Below, piece after piece: positions 515-13,797 of a stretch of DNA of 13,797 nt. A program made the position numbers and the translations under genes. The DNA is from a virus. The stretch's first letter is position 1. Each line of letters starts with the position of its first letter. The notes under the pieces are model-generated. The model saw only the letters and a list, made by a program, of their open reading frames with translations. It had not been told where the DNA came from and ran no database searches. The stretch is taken from the UHGV virus genome UHGV-0117953; one strand, 5' to 3'.

Positions 515-1267
515 ATGGCTGAATACGATAATCACCCATGTTTTCCTCAACCTAGTTCAGATGATATTTCCCTGTGGAAATATATGGATTTTACTAAATT
601 CATGGCATTAGTCACGTATCAAAAAATTTTTCTATGTCGATCTGATCTCTTTGATGATCCTTATGAAGGAACATTCCCAAGAAAAATTATAGAATATGTA
701 CATAATATGAATGAAAGCGACATTGATGAAACTATCTCTGAGTACATCAAGCAGGTGTATAATTTCAACAAGTATGTAAGAAAACATACTTATATAAGTT
801 GTTGGCATGCAAATGAGTTTGAGTCAGCAGCGATGTGGGATCTCTATAGTAAGAATGATGCTTCCGTTGCAATCGAAACCACTTATGCAGAAATAAAAAA
901 TCTATTACCGCCGGAAGCTATGATTGGCTTGGTTAAGTACATTGATTATGATAAGGATGTATTCCCGCTTGATAATACATTTTATCCTTTTACTCATAAA
1001 AGAAAATCATTCGAGCATGAGAGAGAAGTAAGGTTTTTAATTCAAAACTTACCTATCACTGCTGAGGGTACTAGCTTGGATTTTAATAATGCTGTAGCGC
1101 CAAATGTTATTCCGATTGATGTTGATGTTAGTTCATTTGTTAAAAAAGTCCATCTGTCTCCCCGCGCACCTGAATGGATGCTGAATTTGTTAAAAGACAT
1201 TGTGACTAAGTATTCAATAAATGTTGAGGTTAGGCGTTCTAATTTATACATTTCCCCAATTTACTAA
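515..1267 (+). CDS. hypothetical protein, DUF2971-like N-terminal signature
   Basis: 250-aa ORF with ATG start, roughly 35% GC. N-terminal LWKYMDFTKFMALVTYQKIFLCRSDLFDDPYEG resembles the DUF2971 pattern (aromatic-K/H-Y ... hydrophobic ... F/N-D-P-F/Y-E-G) as I recall it. Converges on the integrase 3' end. Confidence 0.6.
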   Translation: MAEYDNHPCFPQPSSDDISLWKYMDFTKFMALVTYQKIFLCRSDLFDDPYEGTFPRKIIEYVHNMNESDIDETISEYIKQVYNFNKYVRKHTYISCWHANEFESAAMWDLYSKNDASVAIETTYAEIKNLLPPEAMIGLVKYIDYDKDVFPLDNTFYPFTHKRKSFEHEREVRFLIQNLPITAEGTSLDFNNAVAPNVIPIDVDVSSFVKKVHLSPRAPEWMLNLLKDIVTKYSINVEVRRSNLYISPIY

Positions 1268-1437: not shown

Positions 1438-2487
1438 TTAATCGGGGAGCATATCATTAGCTTCGGTATGCTGTGTGGGCATTGTAGATAATGGATTGTA
1501 GTGTAGCGCTGTATTAAGGTGATCCGGTGCAAGATGAGCGTAACGCATTGTCATTTTTATATCGTGATGTCCGAGGATTTTTTGCAAAGCAAGGATATTT
1601 CCACCCGACATCATGAAGTGCGCCGCAAACGTATGGCGCAGAACGTGTGTCAGTTGACCGCGAGGGAGCACGATAGACGTTTTTTCCATCACGGATAAAA
1701 ATTGAAAATAGCAGTCTGTGAAGAAATTGAACCCATCAAGCGCCATGATCTCTTCGTAAAGCTCTTTACTGATAGGGATGCTTCTGTTTTTCTTCCCCTT
1801 CGTTCTTACAAAGGTAATTCGGTATTTGGTCACCTGTGATCGGGTAAGGTTTATTGCTTCTCGCCAGCGTGCGCCTGTGCTTAAGCATATCTTGACTACC
1901 AGTGCCAGAATTGGGTCCTGACGTTTGCAATCAGCCAGCAATTCAACAATCTGCTCATGGGTAAGCCATGCCATCTCTTTTTCTGCGATGGTGAATTTTC
2001 GCATGTTCTCCAGTGGGTTTGGATACGACCATTCGCCCAGGCGGGATAGTTCGCTAAAAACACTACTTAGATAGCTTTGCTCCAGGTTAATAGTGACCGG
2101 GCTTGCTCCTTTCTTCCATTTCTCGCTGAAGTAGATCTCTCCTGTCAGGCGTTTATCTCGATAGTGGGCAAACATTTTAGAGGTGAGATCGGTTGCAAGG
2201 GGATTGCCAAGAGCGTCAACCATCAACAGCAATTTGTCATAAACATGCTGCCCAGCAGTCAGAGATTTACCATGTAGTTTGAACCATAGCTCAACCACGT
2301 CTTTCAATGTCCGACGATCCACTGATTCGCCCAGCCAGGGCTTTGCTTCTATTTCCCCCATGGTGTATCGCTCGAAGGCCAGTGCTTCGCCTTTGGTGGC
2401 GAATTGTTTACGCACACGACGCCCACTTCGTCCGGCGGGGTAACATTCGCAAAGCCATTTCCCTGTGGTGAGTTTTCGTACTGCCAT
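1438..2487 (-). CDS. int: tyrosine integrase (phage integrase family)
   Basis: N-terminus MAVRKLTTGKWLCECYPAGRSGRRVRKQFATKGEALAFE is typical of P2/186-type integrase arm-binding domains. C-terminal HVLRHTFA and LGHHDIKMTMRYAHL give the R..H..RH and catalytic Tyr boxes. Start moved to ATG 2487, which has GGAGGG 8 nt upstream; the track start at 2643 has no RBS. Confidence 0.9.
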   Translation of the reverse strand: MAVRKLTTGKWLCECYPAGRSGRRVRKQFATKGEALAFERYTMGEIEAKPWLGESVDRRTLKDVVELWFKLHGKSLTAGQHVYDKLLLMVDALGNPLATDLTSKMFAHYRDKRLTGEIYFSEKWKKGASPVTINLEQSYLSSVFSELSRLGEWSYPNPLENMRKFTIAEKEMAWLTHEQIVELLADCKRQDPILALVVKICLSTGARWREAINLTRSQVTKYRITFVRTKGKKNRSIPISKELYEEIMALDGFNFFTDCYFQFLSVMEKTSIVLPRGQLTHVLRHTFAAHFMMSGGNILALQKILGHHDIKMTMRYAHLAPDHLNTALHYNPLSTMPTQHTEANDMLPD

Positions 2488-2675
2488 AAAAAATGCCCTC
2501 CAGTAGAGAGCATTTTCACTGTATGTATAACCAGTGTCAATGTATGAAATCCTACGACCATACATCTCACTGAAGCCATAATTAAGTTGGCTATTCTTTT
2601 TGCTATGTGAGCATGTAACTTTTGCGGTTAACCTGCGGCTCATTTTTATTTTAGGCGCAGATATAAAAGCAAAAG

Positions 2676-2882: not shown

Positions 2883-3452
2883 CTATTTAACATACTTGAC
2901 TGTTAAACTTATAATTTTACCAATTATTTCAATGTCTTCTATCTTGCATTCGAAGGCTCTGTTTCCACCCTCGACGAAGATTCTTCCACCGGGTAAACGA
3001 GTAATGTCACGGATCGTTATTTCGCCATCAATACTTATTACCCATTTACCATCACGTATATCATCAAATTCCTTATCACAAATAAATTCAGAATTATTAT
3101 CTGTGATTACAAAAAGATTCTTGAATGCCGACGGTAGAAATTCTCTATCGAAAATATAAAAACCGTCTTCACACAAAGCCCCATCAGATAATACATATTT
3201 AGCAACTTCCATAGTATTTGTATTACCTGAAGTTTGCTTTGAACCATGCCCGGTTGTGAGCCAATTAAGCGAAGTGCCTGTTTCAAGGGCGCACTGGATT
3301 ACCCATTCTGCTGGGAATGAGTCACGCATGTAGCGTGTGGCGAGTGTACTTTTAGAGATTCCTAAATGATCGCACAACGCCTGTCGAGTCTTGAATCCAT
3401 AAGCTTCTACCATGCGCTCTATAGCGCCTCGTCCGCCTTTCTCCAAATTCAT
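2883..3452 (-). CDS. cI: CI-type immunity repressor (186/P2-like prophage repressor)
   Basis: N-terminal HTH-like segment TRQALCDHLGISKSTLATRYMRDSFPAEWVIQCALETGTSLNWLTTG. Sits at the immunity position, divergent from the early operon and co-directional with int. ATG at 3452 has GGAG 5 nt upstream; the track start at 3458 is GTG. Confidence 0.75.
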   Translation of the reverse strand: MNLEKGGRGAIERMVEAYGFKTRQALCDHLGISKSTLATRYMRDSFPAEWVIQCALETGTSLNWLTTGHGSKQTSGNTNTMEVAKYVLSDGALCEDGFYIFDREFLPSAFKNLFVITDNNSEFICDKEFDDIRDGKWVISIDGEITIRDITRLPGGRIFVEGGNRAFECKIEDIEIIGKIISLTVKYVK

Positions 3453-3476
3453 GGTCACTCCAAGTGAACTTTTGTC

Positions 3477-5930: not shown

Positions 5931-6784
5931 GCACCATCCTGAAATGGGCGGGAAATAAAACCACCATAATGTCCGAACTGAAAAAACATCTTCCTGCTGG
6001 CCCGCGACTGGTTGAACCTTTCGCGGGTTCCTGTGCTGTGATGATGGAGACGGATTATCCCAGCTATCTGGTTGCGGATATTAATCCTGATTTAATCAAC
6101 CTCTATAAAAAGGTTGCCGCTGATTGTGAATCGTTTATATCTCGCGCCAGAGTTTTATTTGAGATCGCAAACAGGGAGGTGGCTTATTACAACATAAGGC
6201 AGGAGTTTAATTACTCAACTGAAATTACTGATTTCATGAAAGCGGTATATTTCCTGTATCTCAATCGTCACGGTTACCGTGGTTTATGTCGCTATAACAA
6301 GAGCGGGCATTTCAACATTCCCTACGGTAATTATAAAAATCCGTATTTCCCTGAAAAAGAAATTCGCGCATTTGCAGAAAAGGCCCAGCGAGCAACGTTT
6401 ATCTGCGCCAGCTTTGATGAAACGCTGGCGATGTTGAAGGCGGGGGATGTGGTGTATTGCGATCCGCCGTATGACGGTACGTTTTCCGGCTATCACACTG
6501 ACGGCTTCACTGAAGATGACCAGTATCACCTGGCATCTGTTCTTGAACATCGGTCATCAGAAGGACATCCGGTCATTGTTTCTAACAGTGACACATCCCT
6601 GATCCGTTCGCTGTATCGCAATTTTACTCACCACTACATCAAGGCAAAACGCAGCATCGGTGTGGCAGCTGGCGAGGGTAAATCAGCAACAGAAATCATT
6701 GCTGTTTCCGGGCCGCGCTGCTGGGTGGGATTTGATTATTCGCGTGGCGTGGATAGTTCTGCCGTGTACGGAGTACGTGCATGA
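5927..6784 (+). CDS. dam: DNA adenine methyltransferase (Dam family)
   Basis: [12 protein letters not shown]-terminus, FAGSCAV AdoMet motif and catalytic DPPY at 6461-6472. Start set to ATG 5927 (GGAGG 6 nt upstream; overlaps the upstream stop). The track start at 5867 is an upstream extension. Confidence 0.9.
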
Positions 6785-9195
6785 GTCATGCCGATATGAA
6801 CAACTGCTGCGGCTTTAACGAAGCTGCCGCATCGTTCTCATGGAACAGCCCGAAAAAGGCCATTAACCCTTATCTGGACCCGGTGGAAGTTGCGCCGGTT
6901 TCTACGCTTTCAAACCTGATCACTCTGTACGCTGCCGATAACGAGCAGGAACAGCTGCGCCGTGAGGCGCTGAGTGATCAGGTCTGGGAGCGTTATTTCT
7001 TTAATGAATCCCGTGATCCTGTCCAGCGCGAAATGGAACAGGATAAGCTCATTAGTCGGGCAAAGCTGGCGCATGAGCAGCAGCGTTTTAATCCGGATAT
7101 GGTCATTCTGGCGGACGTCAACGCCCAGCCTTCCCATATCAGCAAGCCGCTAATGCAACGTATTGAATACTTCAGCAGCCTGGGCAGGCCAAAGGCTTAT
7201 TCCCGCTATTTACGTGAGACGATTAAGCCATGTCTGGAACGACTGGAGCATGTACGCGACAGTCAGCTATCTGCATCTTTTCGCTTTATGGCAAGCCATG
7301 AAGGGCTGGACGGCCTGCTGATCCTGCCTGAAATGAGTCAGGATCAGGTGAAACGCCTGTCCACCCTGGTAGCTGCGCATATGAGTATGTGCCTTGATGC
7401 CGCTTGTGGCGATTTGTATGCCACCGATGACGTTAAGCCAGAAGAAATCCGCAATACATGGGAAAGGGTGGCAGCGGAAACCCTGCGTCTGGATGTCATC
7501 CCGCCTGCGTTTGAGCAACTCCGTCGGAAAAGAAACCGCCGTAAACCCGTGCCCTATCAACTCATTCCGGGTTCGCTGGCGCGTATGTTGTGCGCCGACT
7601 GGTGGTATCGGAAATTATGGAAGATGCGTTGCGAATGGCGGGAAGAGCAGTTGCGTGCTGTCTGCCTTGTCAGCAAAAAAGTATCTCCCTATGTCAGCTA
7701 TGAAGCCGTGTTGCATAAACGTGAGCAGCGCCGTAAGTCGCTGGAGTTTTTCCGTTCTCATGAACTGGTGAACGAAGACGGCGACACGCTGGACATGGAG
7801 GATGTGGTAAACGCCAGCAGCAGCAACCCTGCGCATCGCCGCAATGAGATGATGGCCTGTGTTAAAGGTCTGGAGCTTATCGCGGAAATGCGCGGTGACT
7901 GCGCCGTTTTCTACACCATCACCTGTCCGTCACGTTTCCATTCCACGCTAAATAACGGCAGACCAAACCCGACCTGGACAAACGCGACGGTAAGACAAAG
8001 CAGTGATTATCTGGTCGGCATGTTTGCTGCATTTCGTAAAGCGATGCACAAAGCCGGATTGCGCTGGTATGGCGTGCGGGTGGCTGAGCCGCATCATGAC
8101 GGTACAGTTCACTGGCACCTGTTGTGTTTTATGCGCAAAAAAGAGCGCCGAGCCATTACTGCTTTGTTGCGTAAGTTTGCCATTCGTGAAGACCGCGAGG
8201 AGCTGGGTAATAACACGGGACCACGCTTTAAGTCTGAGCTGATAAACCCGCGCAAAGGTACGCCAACAAGCTACATCGCGAAATACATCAGTAAGAACAT
8301 TGACGGGCGTGGTCTGGCTGGTGAGATCAGCAAGGAAACGGGTAAATCCCTGCGTGATAACGCTGAATACGTTAATGCCTGGGCGTCTCTACATCGTGTT
8401 CAGCAATTCCGCTTCTTTGGCATTCCGGGGCGTCAGGCTTACCGTGAACTGCGATTGCTGGCTGGTCAGGCGGCAAGGCAACAGGGGGACAAAAAAGCAG
8501 GTGCGCCGGTACTGGATAACCCGCGCCTTGATGCCATCCTGGCTGCTGCTGATGCTGGTTGTTTTGCCTCCTACATCATGAAGCAGGGCGGCGTACTGGT
8601 TCCCCGTAAATATCACCTCATCAGAACCGCTTATGAAATCAACGAAGAGCCGACCGCCTATGGCGATCACGGCATTCGTATTTATGGCATCTGGTCACCC
8701 ATTGCAGAGGGCAAGATCTGCACTCATGCAGTGAAGTGGAAAATGGTTCGTAAAGCCGTTGACGTTCAGGAGGCGGCAGCCGACCAGGGCGCTTGCGCCC
8801 CTTGGACTCGTGGCAATAACTGTCCCCTTGCTGAAAATTTGTACCAACAAGGGAAAGACAAATCAGCTGATGGAGATACCAGAACGGATATCACCCGTAT
8901 GGATGACAAGGAGTTGCACGATTACCTGCACAGTATGAGCAAAAAAGAGCGCCGGGAACTGGCAGCAAGGTTACGCCTGGTGAAACCGAAACGGCGTAAA
9001 GACTACAAACAGCGAATTACAGACCATCAACGACAGCAGCTCGTCTATGAACTGAAGTCCAGAGGATTTGATGGCAGCGAGAAAGAGGTCGATTTACTCC
9101 TTCGCGGCGGCAGCATTCCGTCAGGAGCAGGCCTGCGTATCTTCTATCGGAACCAGCGTTTGCAGGAAGATGATAAGTGGCGGAACCTGTATTAA
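6781..9195 (+). CDS. A: replication initiation endonuclease (P2 gpA-like HUH rolling-circle initiator)
   Basis: 804 aa. HUH-type motif H-W-H at 8110-8118 and two-tyrosine motif Y-I-A-K-Y at 8272-8286, comparable to phiX174 gpA Y-V-A-K-Y. Position after dam as in P2/186 early operons. ATG overlaps the dam stop (ATGA). Confidence 0.85.
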
Positions 9196-9348: not shown

Positions 9349-9537
9349 ATGCAGGACTATTTTTTGGAGTCTTTGAAGCTCCAGCGCATTGATTTTTTTC
9401 TTAAGCTTGTAGCGGCTAGTGAGTGTAGTGATGAAGAGAAGGGGCTGGCTCTGCAGTGGGTTTCTGAATTGACTGATGAACTCATGGCAAAAATCAGAAC
9501 CCACGAATACAACCGCTCAATGGATGTCATCAGCTGA
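9349..9537 (+). CDS. small SOS-operon protein (possible Tum-like N-terminal module)
   Basis: 62 aa from ATG 9349 with AGGAGG at 9339-9344. The track start at 9247 would run through the promoter and LexA box. Immediately followed by the DinI-like gene. Confidence 0.45.
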   Translation: MQDYFLESLKLQRIDFFLKLVAASECSDEEKGLALQWVSELTDELMAKIRTHEYNRSMDVIS

Positions 9538-9547
9538 GGTGACTTTT

Positions 9548-9781
9548 ATGCGCATTGAAATAATGATCGATAAAGAGCAGAAGATTAGCCAGTCTACACT
9601 GGACGCCCTTGAATCCGAGCTTTACCGCAATCTGCGCCCCCTGTATCCCAAAACGGTAATTCGTATCCGCAAAGGTAGCTCTAACGGTGTGGAACTGACC
9701 GGACTGCAACAGGACGAAGAAAGAAAACAAGTGATGAAAATTATGCAGAAGGTGTGGGAAGACGACAGCTGGCTGCATTAA
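9548..9781 (+). CDS. DinI-like protein (phage Tum/DinI family)
   Basis: 77 aa: MRIEIMIDKEQ...LDALESELYRNLRPLYP...IRIRKGSSNGVELTG...KQVMKIMQKVWEDDSWLH parallels E. coli DinI (MRIEVTIAK...ETWESADDWF). GAGGTG RBS 5 nt upstream of ATG 9548. Confidence 0.75.
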   Translation: MRIEIMIDKEQKISQSTLDALESELYRNLRPLYPKTVIRIRKGSSNGVELTGLQQDEERKQVMKIMQKVWEDDSWLH

Positions 9782-10051
9782 GAAACGTTGCTGGCGTCTG
9801 AACTTGCTTCTGGCGTCAGCAAGGTTGAACAACGAGCTATGCGAGGCGTTAGTGTCAATTTGTTACCTTAACCACTATATATGCCAGGAAATTAACAGTT
9901 CTTAAGAAACCGCTTGCATGATCGAGCGCATTGAACTTAAGTTTAAGTAACGAAATCAACAGATGATATTGTTGTCTAAATTTTAAAGATAATCTGTTGA
10001 GGTTGTAGGCGTCGGAGTGTAGACTTCCGCGCCATGTGAAAAGGGGGAGTT

Positions 10052-10267
10052 ATGTCAAGCATCGCCGCATTTAGCCTGGGTAACCCAGTTGAACGTCTGG
10101 CAAGGGTTCTTAAAGAGAACCAGGACAAACTCAATCTTAGTAAAGATGGTTTTGTGTCCGTAGACTTGTCTAACAAAAGAGCAATGGATGCCATCAAGGC
10201 ACAGATGGATAAGCTTGAAGGCATCAAAACGAGCACTGTAAAAGAGAAAACTAATAGAACCAGATAA
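10052..10267 (+). CDS. small soluble protein, first gene of a coupled two-gene cargo operon
   Basis: 71 aa, ATG with GGGGGAG RBS. Helical and charged. Its stop overlaps the start of the next gene (TAATG). Confidence 0.5.
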   Translation: MSSIAAFSLGNPVERLARVLKENQDKLNLSKDGFVSVDLSNKRAMDAIKAQMDKLEGIKTSTVKEKTNRTR

Positions 10268-11109
10268 TGGCAACATTACTTTTAGCAGTGATTTTGGTTA
10301 GTGGTTTTATTTATGTAAACCTATCACTTTCAACAAGATACCGATATAAGCGTTCCAACGGCTGGGACGCTTATTTTTTTGTGGCTGCCTGGGGTATCGT
10401 TTTTTTTCTCCTTGGCGGTTTTTTCACCTTTATTTTGAACGTCAGCGGAGGGTTTCGTTGGCTGGCTAATGCCTTGAATCTAACACCTGACAGTTTTAAT
10501 GGCATGTTGTCTTCATCGAAAGACAAACTTCAAAGAATAAATGAAATCAAACAGATAGCATGGGTTATGATTTCAATTGTCCTCGCTGCGATTTCAGGTT
10601 TTGGAAATAAGTTACGCACATCACGTGGAGATCGTCGCTGGGATGCCTTAGCTAAAGCTGTGGGTAATAACGCTTTCGAATCATTACTTATGGAAGCGTC
10701 CGCAAGACAGTTTCCGATCATAGCAACTCTGTCGTCTCGCAAAATCTATGTTGGCCTTGTTACTTGTCCGGCGTTAGAAAACGGGCTTTCAGAGCACCTT
10801 GAACTTCTCCCGATGTTAAGCGGATATCGGGATAAAGATGATCTAACGATTAGTATCACGACTAACTATCACCAACATTATCTTGATAGTGGTGTGATAA
10901 GTGGAATGTCTCGGCTTAATATCGAAGATTTCCGTGTGCTCATACCAAAAGATGAGGTTGAAACAATTTCGTTTTTTGATACTGAGACATATAACAAATT
11001 TAAAGAAAATGAAGCCAGGGATAGAAAGAACTGTCGAAAGATTGGTAGTAAAAGTGCATCTTCGCGCAGCAAGCGTGCAGCAGATGCTGAGTCAAATGAT
11101 CGTGCATGA
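10267..11109 (+). CDS. membrane protein (3 predicted TM helices plus about 170-aa C-terminal domain), function unknown
   Basis: 280 aa. Hydrophobic segments at about residues 4-21, 35-57 and 96-112, followed by a soluble charged domain. Lower GC than the flanking phage core. Translationally coupled to the 71-aa ORF. Confidence 0.65.
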   Translation: MATLLLAVILVSGFIYVNLSLSTRYRYKRSNGWDAYFFVAAWGIVFFLLGGFFTFILNVSGGFRWLANALNLTPDSFNGMLSSSKDKLQRINEIKQIAWVMISIVLAAISGFGNKLRTSRGDRRWDALAKAVGNNAFESLLMEASARQFPIIATLSSRKIYVGLVTCPALENGLSEHLELLPMLSGYRDKDDLTISITTNYHQHYLDSGVISGMSRLNIEDFRVLIPKDEVETISFFDTETYNKFKENEARDRKNCRKIGSKSASSRSKRAADAESNDRA

Positions 11110-11157
11110 CTATGCTGCATGAGATCGCATGATCGTTTGAGGATCATTTTTGCTGAG

Positions 11158-11181
11158 GCCCGCCAGAACTGGCGGGCTTTT
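11158..11181 (+). terminator. rho-independent terminator
   Basis: gcccgccag-aa-ctggcgggc (9-bp GC-rich stem) followed by tttt at 11178-11181, 50 bp after the membrane-protein stop. Confidence 0.6.
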
Positions 11182-11226
11182 GCGTAGATCATGCAACTGC
11201 ATGAAAACCACTACATAAAGCGGGCA

Positions 11227-11245
11227 GGCGTGGCGGGGATACGAG
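11227..11245. other. cos-like G/C-rich motif GGCGTGGCGGGGATACGAG
   Basis: The first 13 nt match what I recall of the 19-nt cohesive ends of 186/P2 (GGCG[A/T]GGCGGGGA...). Located between the early-region cargo and the packaging genes, where cos sits in a P2/186 prophage. Confidence 0.35.
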
Positions 11246-11362
11246 CGCGCGCAAAACCTGTTGTTTAAGTGGTTTAGATCGGATAATTTATATGTTGTCC
11301 ACTTGAATTAAAATTATGCAATGTTTTATATCTGATTCATTTATATAAGTTAGGTAAGATAG

Positions 11363-12367
11363 ATGACAGACGAAGAATTAAAAGAACAGCATTCAATTTA
11401 CGGCTCAGTTGCGGAATTGTTCAGACGAGTTATGGTTGAGCAAATTGATGTTATTTTGTCGGAGAATAAATTGTCTTTAGGGGTTCCAATTGAAAGCCGT
11501 GTCAAAACATTAAGTTCTATTATTAATAAGGATAACCGAAAACCTCTAAAGATTGAGTCAATAGTTGACTTGGATGATTATGTTGGAATCCGATTAATAA
11601 TGCTATTTAAGCGAGATGTTGAAAAGGTTATATCTTGTCTGAAAGAACATTTCATTATTTTGAAGCAAGAGAATAAACTTGATGAACTGGATGAGGATAG
11701 ATTTGGGTACCAATCTCATCATTATGTAATACAACCTCCAGAAGAATGGCTAAGAGTTCCATCCTTTAGTGATTTTAAAAATATGAAAGTGGAGGTGCAA
11801 ATACGAACGCTTTCTCAGCATATTTGGGCTGCAGCATCTCATAAACTGCAATACAAAAAAGAGCAAAGTGTTCCACTTCCTCTTAGGCGAGCAATTAATA
11901 GAGTATCTGCTTTGCTTGAAGTCGTTGATTTCGAATTTGAAAGAGTGTTATCAGAGCGTGAGGGGTATGTTGAGACAAGCAGACTAGATAGAGGAACTAT
12001 GCTTGACGTAGAATTGCTGAAAATGATAGCTGCAAGTGAATTACCACCTGATAATAAATCTGATGATGAAAATTATGATGATTTGCTTTCTGAATTAATT
12101 AAAAATAAAATTATAACTGTAGGTGAGTGTATTGACGCTTTAAAGAGTGGGCTACCTTCGGCTATTGACGAAGATAAGGCAATGGTTAGAAGAATTATAA
12201 GTAATGAAGATGACTATGATGATGAGTCTGAGTTAAAGCGTGCTAGGTTAGGGGTGTTTTTCACTCATGTAGGGTTAATTCGGACTGCGATTGCTAATTC
12301 TATGGGGGCTTCTTATATTAGAAATCAGACCGAAGGAATGGATGTTTATGATGATTCAGAAGAATAA
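11363..12367 (+). CDS. RelA/SpoT-homolog nucleotidyltransferase (toxSAS-like) with an acidic C-terminal domain
   Basis: 334 aa, about 30-38% GC. Synthetase-fold motifs: R46-x-K48...S...K, D-x-x-G75-x-R77 (11585-11593), G-Y-Q-S-H-H (115-120), E-V-Q-I-R-T (11792-11809) and H-I-W-A-A-A-S-H-K-L-Q-Y-K. C-terminal roughly 150 aa are strongly acidic with no Cys cluster. Own AT-rich promoter region and AGGT RBS. Confidence 0.8.
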   Translation: MTDEELKEQHSIYGSVAELFRRVMVEQIDVILSENKLSLGVPIESRVKTLSSIINKDNRKPLKIESIVDLDDYVGIRLIMLFKRDVEKVISCLKEHFIILKQENKLDELDEDRFGYQSHHYVIQPPEEWLRVPSFSDFKNMKVEVQIRTLSQHIWAAASHKLQYKKEQSVPLPLRRAINRVSALLEVVDFEFERVLSEREGYVETSRLDRGTMLDVELLKMIAASELPPDNKSDDENYDDLLSELIKNKIITVGECIDALKSGLPSAIDEDKAMVRRIISNEDDYDDESELKRARLGVFFTHVGLIRTAIANSMGASYIRNQTEGMDVYDDSEE

Positions 12368-12415: not shown

Positions 12416-13438
12416 TTAATCTAAGTTGTATGGCTGGAAAGTAATGACATTTTCTCCTAGCCATACATTTATCTCGAATAATCTCTTCTGCAGCGGGATC
12501 AGTTCATTTCTCACAAAAACTTTACTCGCTTTCTCCACATCCCCAAATCCACCAACATTATTCGGCATAATCCCCATCATTTGCGGCGGCACTCGGTGTG
12601 CTGCCATCATGTCGTCCCGGCTCACGTTCTTGATATTCAGAAACTCATCCTTCGCTGCGACTTCTGATAACGGGATAATCTGAAGCCCGTCTTTTTTGCC
12701 GTTAGGCGAGTACATAAACAGATTACGGAAGTTGCCTGGACCTTTGGCGCTTTTCATCGCGTTACGGAGGTTGTTTACATCCTCCTGGTTCTGCGCGGCG
12801 TCGGTCATGTACATGATGAAGCCTGCATGACTGCCGTTGATGTAATACTTGCGGCGGAACAGCGTGGCGGATTCGTTGAGCAGAGCTGACGGAATGGCAG
12901 AAAGGTAACCCGGCAGACCATAAATCTCCTGGTTGATATCCGGCTCCATCAGGTGGAAGACATTACCTTTTGTGAACTGATACGGCTGTGTCGTCAGGCT
13001 GTATTGCACAAACCAGTATGTTTCAAGGTCAAGTCCGCGCCGGGTGTATTTTGCCAGTGCAGGTTCCAGCGAAATAACTTCACCAAAGCGGTTCGTGCGT
13101 TTCTCCAGGTAGGCGTTACCAAAAACCAGATAGTCCTGCACAAAACGGGTAAATGCCTGCTGGCTGAGAAGGCGATGTGGAATATAGGTACTGCTGATAA
13201 TGTCACGCTTAACACTGATCGGGGAGCTGTGGTGCACGGCGGCGCGGAAGGTGCGCGCCAGTCCGTCAAAGCTGACGGGCGGCTCATACCAGCGATCCAT
13301 CTGTACGCATTCCACATAGTCCAGCAGTTCGCGGCGGTCCAGTACAGGAATGGGATCACCAAAGCTGAAAGCCTCCGCAACGGATTTTTTAGTTTCTTCT
13401 GCAGTTACGGTTTCGTCTGGCGCGATATGTTCTTTCAT
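12416..13438 (-). CDS. portal vertex protein (P2 gpQ-like)
   Basis: 340 aa from ATG 13438 (the track start at 13441 is TTG). Length, and a start sharing one base with the upstream terminase stop, match the P2 Q/P arrangement as I recall it. Confidence 0.85.
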   Translation of the reverse strand: MKEHIAPDETVTAEETKKSVAEAFSFGDPIPVLDRRELLDYVECVQMDRWYEPPVSFDGLARTFRAAVHHSSPISVKRDIISSTYIPHRLLSQQAFTRFVQDYLVFGNAYLEKRTNRFGEVISLEPALAKYTRRGLDLETYWFVQYSLTTQPYQFTKGNVFHLMEPDINQEIYGLPGYLSAIPSALLNESATLFRRKYYINGSHAGFIMYMTDAAQNQEDVNNLRNAMKSAKGPGNFRNLFMYSPNGKKDGLQIIPLSEVAAKDEFLNIKNVSRDDMMAAHRVPPQMMGIMPNNVGGFGDVEKASKVFVRNELIPLQKRLFEINVWLGENVITFQPYNLD

Positions 13439-13797
13439 CAAAAAATCTCCACAATATTGCTGGTATTGGCGGATTCGCCCTGCAGCGGTTCGTTAAACAG
13501 AGCGTGCATCGTTGCCCAGGCCAGATCGGCGTGGCTGGCTTCTTCGCTGCGGCTGGCTTCATAGGTCGGGCGGTTGCCGCTGGCGGTGGTGGCGCGACGG
13601 ATTGCCATAAATGACTGCGCTATGTCGGTGTGTCCGGCGTCAAACTCCAGACGGCGGTGGCTGATAATGTCGTAGGCCTTGAGTACCAGGGCGTTTTTAA
13701 CGTTGGGGTTATACCCAGGGCGGCGGAGCGATGAGTTCTAACGGGATCGTGGTTGATGCGCATCAGCATACTGGCGTCCTGAAAGGCGGCGATACAA
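13438..13797 (-). CDS. terminase large (ATPase) subunit, 3' end only; truncated by the window, with an apparent frame change
   Basis: The minus-strand frame ending at TGA 13438-13440 is open only up to a TAG at 13738-13740 (...LAWATMHALFNEPLQGESANTSNIVEIF*). Upstream, a different minus frame is open from 13797 down to 13623 (...IAAFQDASMLMRINHDP...). Confidence 0.5.

Follow-up and report, generated by a model that had tools for sequence, protein, structure and literature searches.

The window considered here, a stretch of 13,797 nucleotides from the virus genome UHGV-0117953, is the left, early part of a 186/P2-like prophage, in which two overlapping genes, A and B, form an autonomous, horizontally mobile accessory module. 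The module occupies slot 1 of the gpA-Q hotspot of P2/186-type phages, an interval that is documented in P2 as a hotspot of anti-phage systems (PMC9122126), and a conserved spacer bearing a terminator splits this hotspot into two independently exchangeable slots. Gene A encodes a small soluble protein and gene B a membrane protein whose C-terminal domain has, in a structural model, an Sm/Hfq-like fold. We tentatively read the pair, with a probability of about 0.4, as a new module of phage exclusion (superinfection exclusion at the inner membrane) or of abortive infection. The features on which the argument turns, in window coordinates and with lengths in base pairs or amino acids (aa), are the following open reading frames (ORFs) and intervals:

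9853-11101, plus strand: A-B cassette, 1249 bp, inserted as a discrete unit when compared with P2-like prophages without the pair
9853-10051, plus strand: leader of the cassette, conserved across genera
10052-10267, plus strand: ORF A, 71 aa, phrog_9843 (unknown function)
10267-11109, plus strand: ORF B, 280 aa, three transmembrane (TM) helices and a predicted cytoplasmic Sm-like domain, phrog_3630 (unknown function)
11102-11254, plus strand: backbone spacer, 153 bp, with the last codons and stop of B and the hairpin at 11158-11181

The limits of the cassette were set by a prophage that lacks the pair, in E. coli 503440 (L094), where no more than 7 nt separate position 9852 of the window from position 11102, so that the cassette spans 9853-11101. 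Its GC content is 0.407, compared with 0.528 for gpA and 0.499 for the portal gene. In the same related prophage, gpA is broken by an IS100 element of the IS21 family (L094 911-2712), and the prophage is therefore defective.

The backbone spacer to the right of the cassette is found at 90-96% identity in prophages without the pair, and the cargo on either side of it varies. Elsewhere in E. coli prophages, slot 1 holds PD-T4-7 (PADLOC E 2.8e-144 in a related E. coli prophage), a ShosT-like phosphoribosyltransferase (PRTase) with a hypothetical protein, a DUF4145 protein, a 111-aa protein, or nothing at all, and slot 2 is taken by SEFIR, a retron, a DUF262 protein, or others. Homology to the window ends at about 11252-11254, just past the spacer, in 51 of the 52 pair-bearing E. 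coli genomes, which therefore carry other slot-2 genes. Table S5A of PMC9122126, where the pair is entered as 'hypothetical + hypothetical', unnamed and with no test reported, gives its RefSeq proteins WP_000094764 and WP_021556032 alongside SieB, PIN_12, and other partners. Given such varied partners, the pair is independent of its slot-2 neighbour. An earlier note, made from the sequence alone, had placed the two genes in a variable site equivalent to that of tin and old in P2; the placement is borne out by their position between gpA/DinI and the portal gene, in a slot that relatives leave empty or fill with PD-T4-7 or other cargo.

The pair is also sporadic. It was found in 52 of 5426 complete E. 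coli genomes (1%), whereas flank matches were found in 1281, about 1230 of them without the pair, a distribution that agrees with the cargo status first proposed for the two genes. Neither the lysis or structural homology nor the core-genome distribution that the earlier note had set against its own proposal was found.

Both ORFs stand where they had been read from the sequence. They overlap in a TAATG at 10265-10269, in which the stop codon of A (TAA, 10265-10267) shares a base with the start codon of B (ATG, 10267-10269), and both are real genes, with homologues that are kept across phyla and always in pairs. The strong ribosome-binding site claimed for A survives in part: a purine-rich Shine-Dalgarno sequence, AAGGGGGAG, lies at 10041-10049, and its gap to the ATG is short, at 2-4 nt. 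The clean intrinsic terminator claimed at 11158-11181 fares similarly, in that the hairpin is strong (-27.3 kcal/mol, z = -4.7 against shuffles) and the stem is followed by just 4 U, for which reason a stricter terminator scan missed it. As it lies in the spacer common to pair-less prophages, this terminator is an element of the backbone and not the cassette's own. The terminator scan also returned, within the coding region of B (10346-10384, plus strand, codons ~27-40), a 12-pair hairpin followed by TTTTTTT, which overlaps the conserved KRSNGWDAYFF motif and could be either chance or an intragenic attenuator.

The B family is large. An exhaustive profile search over cluster representatives at 50% identity returned 2887 clusters at E <= 1e-3 and 2022 at E <= 1e-10, and nearly all members are 240-290 aa long and share one full-length architecture; a model of this family was found in none of Pfam, NCBIfam, and PADLOC. 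When one genome per species was scanned, 80 loci came to light, in Enterobacterales, Vibrionaceae, Shewanella, Pasteurellaceae, Neisseria, Snodgrassella, Advenella, Pseudomonas, Xanthomonas, and metagenome-assembled genomes of Acidobacteria, and throughout these loci the start of B is overlapped by, or adjoins the end of, an ORF of 53-95 aa. An iterated A profile picks out this ORF in 54 loci and matches nothing else among all the ORFs of these loci, while most of the remaining small ORFs display, by inspection, the same hairpin-helix pattern (…GRGxLxVD…). In all, at least 78 of 81 loci have an A-like ORF before B, the identities of the two proteins co-vary (r = 0.81, with A diverging slightly faster), and A and B are therefore an ancient and obligate two-gene unit. 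In seven species (L015, L018, L022, L034, L040, L048, and L057) B is frameshifted or truncated beside an intact A-like ORF; the reverse case is rare.

A search for the same pair in other P2/186 prophages, as the earlier note had proposed, found it there and far beyond P2 phages, with the 80 loci falling into about 50 different synteny groups. The closest relatives are in the same P2-like hotspot (L002-L015, and phages SEN4/SEN5 and ST15-OXA48phi14.1). Elsewhere, the pair stands between gpK and gpI/J, within a lambdoid tail module; in a lambdoid nin region, where an E. coli variant adjoins hok/gef; between int and attP in Cronobacter phage phiES15; at the edge of a Shewanella P2-like prophage; and, in Pectobacterium, in an islet composed of DinI, A, and B. 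In an Aeromonas prophage (L093 7785-8765) it is directly followed by the tape measure gene, at a place where one would expect genes for tail assembly chaperones; in HK97 the exclusion moron, gene 15, has the tail assembly chaperone gene on one side and the tape measure gene on the other (PMC3594210). About 25 Salmonella plasmids carry a distant A-B pair (68 + 262 aa, with 23% identity to B). The plasmid that we examined, pSTY1-2010K-1587 (L098 5791-6789), is a conjugative IncC plasmid, on which the pair is flanked by a mer transposon and a RecD-like AAA ATPase (PADLOC typeIV_RecD 2.3e-50, PDC-S68 1e-44).

We also took a census of the neighbours in batch with Pfam and PADLOC, within three genes of the pair at non-redundant loci. 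It returned mobile-element genes (8 integrases, GPA, TraG, FtsK, and phage tail and terminase genes) and strong defence matches (HsdR, a SLATT 2TM effector, SspH, PDC-M41, PDC-M30, PDC-M55C, and PD-T4-5), and the neighbours were largely metabolic.

Protein B is built of an N-terminal membrane part and a soluble C-terminal part of ~165 aa, much as the earlier note had described it. Kyte-Doolittle hydropathy marks hydrophobic segments at aa 1-23, 34-63, and 94-112, and an AF2 model places matching helices at 2-29, 33-60, and 87-119. The charge amounts to +3 for the loop that follows TM1 and to +4 behind TM3, from which we predict an N-out/C-in topology that leaves the C-terminal ~165 residues in the cytoplasm. 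The parts of the protein are as follows:

10267-10602, plus strand: membrane part of B, with TM1 at aa 1-23, TM2 at aa 34-63, and TM3 at aa 94-112, from hydropathy and charge
aa 24-34 of B: basic cytoplasmic loop RYRYKRSNGWD, conserved
aa 61-93 of B: loop predicted to be periplasmic, variable and indel-rich
10672-10980, plus strand: beta-barrel domain of B (aa ~136-238), predicted to be Sm/Hfq-like, which includes the invariant motif LSGYRDKD and Y201/H204/Y205

Conservation is uneven along the protein. The cytoplasmic loop scores 0.74 against 0.40 for the predicted periplasmic loop, which has the lowest conservation and the most alignment insertions, with other parts at 0.70-0.74. The invariant residues form two clusters. 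In the barrel they are K159, Y161, G163, S185-G186-Y-R188-D-K-D, Y201, H204, Y205, F222, F237, and Y242; in the cytoplasmic loop and at the start of TM2, they are R29, Y36, and G43.

The sequence and structure searches that had been proposed for both proteins gave a divided answer. Sequence searches led to no named family, in line with the first reading of the two genes, and the family scans gave A and B matches to PHROG families of unknown function only; against PADLOC-DB 2.0, B had a chance-level match (E 0.14). Structural comparison of the model, by contrast, assigns the C-terminal domain of B a predicted Sm/Hfq-like fold, with a further resemblance to WYL domains, the ligand sensors of the defence regulators BrxR and CapW. 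Three assignments were tried and rejected. Sequence homology to Hfq was dismissed on a probability of 0.1% in an hhalign comparison of the B alignment with E. coli Hfq, and Pfam LSM and Hfq gave no match to B; membership in the MscS family was dismissed for want of a Pfam MS_channel match even at E <= 1; and a holin or spanin reading was dismissed because the pair matches no lysis family in Pfam or PHROG. One homologue of B is misnamed 'Heat-inducible transcription repressor HrcA' in UniRef.

Protein A is soluble, with no hydrophobic segment and a net charge of +5, and its predicted fold runs from a helix through a beta-hairpin to a long helix, in which no DNA-binding fold typical of type II antitoxins is recognisable. 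It has no PADLOC match. In public databases, this 71-aa protein is widely misnamed 'multidrug ABC transporter ATPase', and one homologue from Shewanella is misnamed '50S ribosomal protein L33'.

The 199-bp leader that precedes A aligns with those of cassettes from Serratia, Buttiauxella, Citrobacter, and others at 75% mean identity, with invariant blocks. It contains a perfect palindrome at 9931-9946, ACTTAAGT within GAACTTAAGTT, which is invariant in 7 cassettes of different genera, followed by an inverted repeat at 9956-9970/9986-10000, TCAACAGAT…ATCTGTTGA, that overlaps a GATAAT hexamer. Judged by their sequence, these repeats (9931-10000) may form a promoter or operator region. Since the window contains no Rfam RNA family and no tandem or ToxI-like repeats, an RNA antitoxin of type III is unlikely.

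The remainder of the window is organised as an early region of this phage group, with the portal gene at its far end:

515-1267, plus strand: DUF2971-like protein at the left prophage end, beside the integrase, 250 aa; PADLOC candidate PDC-S31 3.6e-23
1438-2643, minus strand: integrase
2883-3458, minus strand: CI repressor
between CI and replication protein A: CII/CP76, Fil, DUF5347, TraR/DksA-like protein, and Dam methylase
6781-9195, plus strand: replication protein A (Phage_GPA)
between replication protein A and the DinI-like gene: a small ORF
9476-9781, plus strand: DinI-like gene
11363-12367, plus strand: RelA/SpoT-like protein, in slot 2 here and separate from the pair, 334 aa; Pfam RelA_SpoT 7.6e-20, PADLOC PDC-S33 1.8e-16, phrog_9640
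12416-13441, minus strand: portal gene

The RelA/SpoT-like protein may, from its family matches, be a single-gene defence of the toxSAS or CapRel type. The annotation of E. coli SCU-485 divides its homologue in two, a 'GTP pyrophosphokinase' and a hypothetical protein. The DUF2971-like gene looks like a second accessory or defence site of the same element. A near-identical prophage in SCU-485 has the same gene order, followed by terminase, capsid, lysis, and tail genes, and an annotated relative (L001) has the same order of gpA, DinI, and portal, with the holin, lysozyme, and LysB/LysC elsewhere in the prophage.

We favour a role in phage exclusion or abortive infection because the pair is mobile, occupies a slot that hosts defence genes, and combines a sensor-like barrel with a variable loop and a small coupled partner. 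What we infer of B's oligomerisation and ligand, of the role of A, and of any phenotype can be put as a sequence of steps. B would sit in the inner membrane, N-out/C-in, and would assemble into a ring via its cytoplasmic Sm/Hfq-like domain, gathering the 3 TM helices of each subunit. The Sm-like pocket (LSGYRDKD, Y201/H204/Y205), together with the basic cytoplasmic loop, would bind a nucleic-acid or nucleotide cue, or A itself, and the variable periplasmic loop would set specificity. A, translationally coupled to B and co-diverging with it, would be the cognate partner that keeps B inactive or adapts it. The earlier note's candidate roles, a regulator or antitoxin for A and an abortive-infection membrane disruptor for B, are likewise putative. 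Upon infection, B would then block genome entry, or open and depolarise the membrane. In a bolder form, the pair would found a new and phylum-spanning class of anti-phage immunity in which a membrane-anchored Sm/Hfq-like ring, on the cytoplasmic side of the inner membrane, senses phage nucleic acid as it enters or early in infection, or else a nucleotide signal, and then plugs entry or, by opening its bundle of 3 TM helices per subunit, collapses the membrane potential, with the hairpin-helix protein A (55-90 aa) as its dedicated inhibitor or adaptor; we hold this to be unlikely, but, if true, it would be the first defence effector built on the Sm fold.

Several observations weigh against the exclusion or abortive-infection reading. 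The Sm-like fold derives from an AF2 model of moderate confidence (pLDDT 76.5), and neither protein has a significant match in the Pfam, NCBIfam, or PADLOC scans or in a PDB sequence search. The full-text literature yielded no experimental test of the pair, which is also missing from the DefensePredictor supplements. Promoter scans of the leader found weak sigma-70-like matches and no convincing promoter of its own; gpA-orf-DinI lie upstream of the pair on the same strand, and no terminator intervenes, so that the pair may be expressed by read-through and not necessarily in the lysogen. The census matches were pooled, tied neither to individual loci nor to a background rate. Distant homologues often stand among housekeeping genes, and 14 Pseudomonas species share a syntenic copy of the pair, with an FMN oxidoreductase or HTH-cupin regulator on one side and an outer-membrane protein gene on the other, an arrangement that looks vertically inherited and not hotspot-like. 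Copies of this kind would suit a non-defence membrane function, by which the pair serves as a lysogenic-conversion or fitness gene, with B as a small-MscS-like ion or solute channel, an envelope-stress device, or a membrane RNA tether, and A as its regulatory subunit. The plan of B, three TM helices before a cytoplasmic Sm-like domain in N-out/C-in orientation, is that of MscS too; the family is very large and spans phyla, with its 2887 clusters; syntenic copies among housekeeping genes are long-lived in the Pseudomonas fluorescens group and Photorhabdus; and the neighbours at distant loci are mostly metabolic or transport genes. We regard such a function as improbable, although it deserves serious weight: B has no MS_channel match even at the permissive threshold given above, the copies in Enterobacterales are almost only in prophage accessory sites, and so patchy a distribution in E. 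coli (1%) disfavours a general physiological role.

The coupling of a small upstream gene to a larger downstream one (by TAATG here, abutting elsewhere) is also what an addiction system of the toxin-antitoxin (TA) kind would display, in which B would act as a toxin at the membrane and A, translated first from the shared mRNA, as a labile proteic antitoxin, and the pair would stabilise its carrier with no dedicated anti-phage role. The carriers fit, since prophages, IncC plasmids, and tiny islets between housekeeping genes are where TA loci are found, and one E. coli variant stands beside hok/gef; A evolves slightly faster than B, and loci with a broken B and an intact A number seven, while loss of A with B intact is rare. 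The last point loses its force once gene length is considered: B is four times as long as A, so the excess of broken B matches the 4:1 ratio expected by chance, and we have set it aside as evidence of toxicity. With no antitoxin-type DNA-binding fold in A, no match to a known TA family for either protein, and the most conserved part of B being an elaborate cytoplasmic domain and not a simple membrane-damaging peptide, we think addiction rather unlikely, though it counts among the main rivals. That the pair serves the cycle of the phage itself, for example in the timing of lysis, the entry or exit of DNA, or help with the tail or assembly, is far less probable still. Read-through from early or late operons would then provide its expression, as the pair follows the early genes with no terminator before it and makes use of the backbone terminator, and in other phages the pair lies inside late tail operons. 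Most related prophages, however, lack the pair yet have an identical backbone, a close relative (L001) has its holin, endolysin, and spanin set elsewhere, and the pair also occurs on plasmids and at phage-free chromosomal sites; a role that most relatives do without, and that would be exercised outside phages, is therefore unlikely.

About one fifth of P2-like prophages carry hotspot genes without recognised defence function (PMC13586616), and the pair is one of these unrecognised cargos, spread from Acidobacteria to Enterobacterales and over several kinds of mobile element. Should it exclude phages, it would be a new family of unprecedented architecture, a membrane-anchored Sm-like domain with a tiny partner, and would need a new annotation model. 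Whatever the function, the unnamed family pair merits Pfam or DUF entries, the misleading names 'multidrug ABC transporter ATPase' for A and 'HrcA' for one homologue of B stand corrected, and the division of the hotspot into two exchangeable slots holds independently of what the pair does. The earlier note contained neither this division nor the wide spread of the pair nor the predicted Sm/Hfq-like fold of B.

Cargo pairs with a membrane component, in hotspots or as morons, are already known as a kind, whereas this pair has been catalogued but not named, and its protein families and architecture of three TM helices with an Sm-like domain are undescribed. Set beside Hfq/LSm proteins, B is predicted to share the Sm fold without any sequence relationship, and differs in the fusion to three TM helices and in an insertion of ~20 residues between strands 4 and 5. 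The WYL sensors BrxR, CapW, and DriD are more remote, as B scores lower against them in structure than against Hfq, lacks their helix-turn-helix and WCX domains, and is membrane-anchored and not a transcription factor. In MscS-type channels, three TM helices in N-out/C-in orientation lead into a ring-forming Sm-like beta domain in the cytoplasm; the overall plan of B is alike, with no MS_channel match.

The arrangement of the genes has parallels of its own. In CptA/CptB (YgfX/SdhE), a type IV TA system, the gene for a small soluble protein likewise lies upstream of the gene for an inner-membrane protein, but the families are unrelated, and YgfX has two TM helices and no Sm-like domain. With type II TA systems, the pair shares small, adjacent, co-oriented, and coupled genes (TAATG here, abutting in nearly all loci), but A has no recognisable antitoxin fold and B belongs to no known toxin family. 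The pair resembles a moron in its discrete insertion and deviant GC content, and departs from one in borrowing the terminator of the backbone. At 71 aa, A is far shorter than RexA, which has about 280 aa and is the soluble counterpart of RexB. Like the exclusion morons HK97 gp15 and P22 SieA and the two-component abortive-infection system RexAB, the pair provides a prophage-borne inner-membrane protein at an accessory site, although no sequence similarity links it to any of them (its PHROG matches are to families of unknown function only), and gp15 and SieA work alone; with gp15 the likeness extends to the site itself, for the Aeromonas copy lies at the same place upstream of the tape measure gene. 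The closest parallel in position is with PD-T4-7, the ShosT-like PRTase, and the other slot-1 cargo, whose proteins are unrelated and mostly encoded on the opposite strand, but which occupy the identical place between DinI and the 153-bp spacer.

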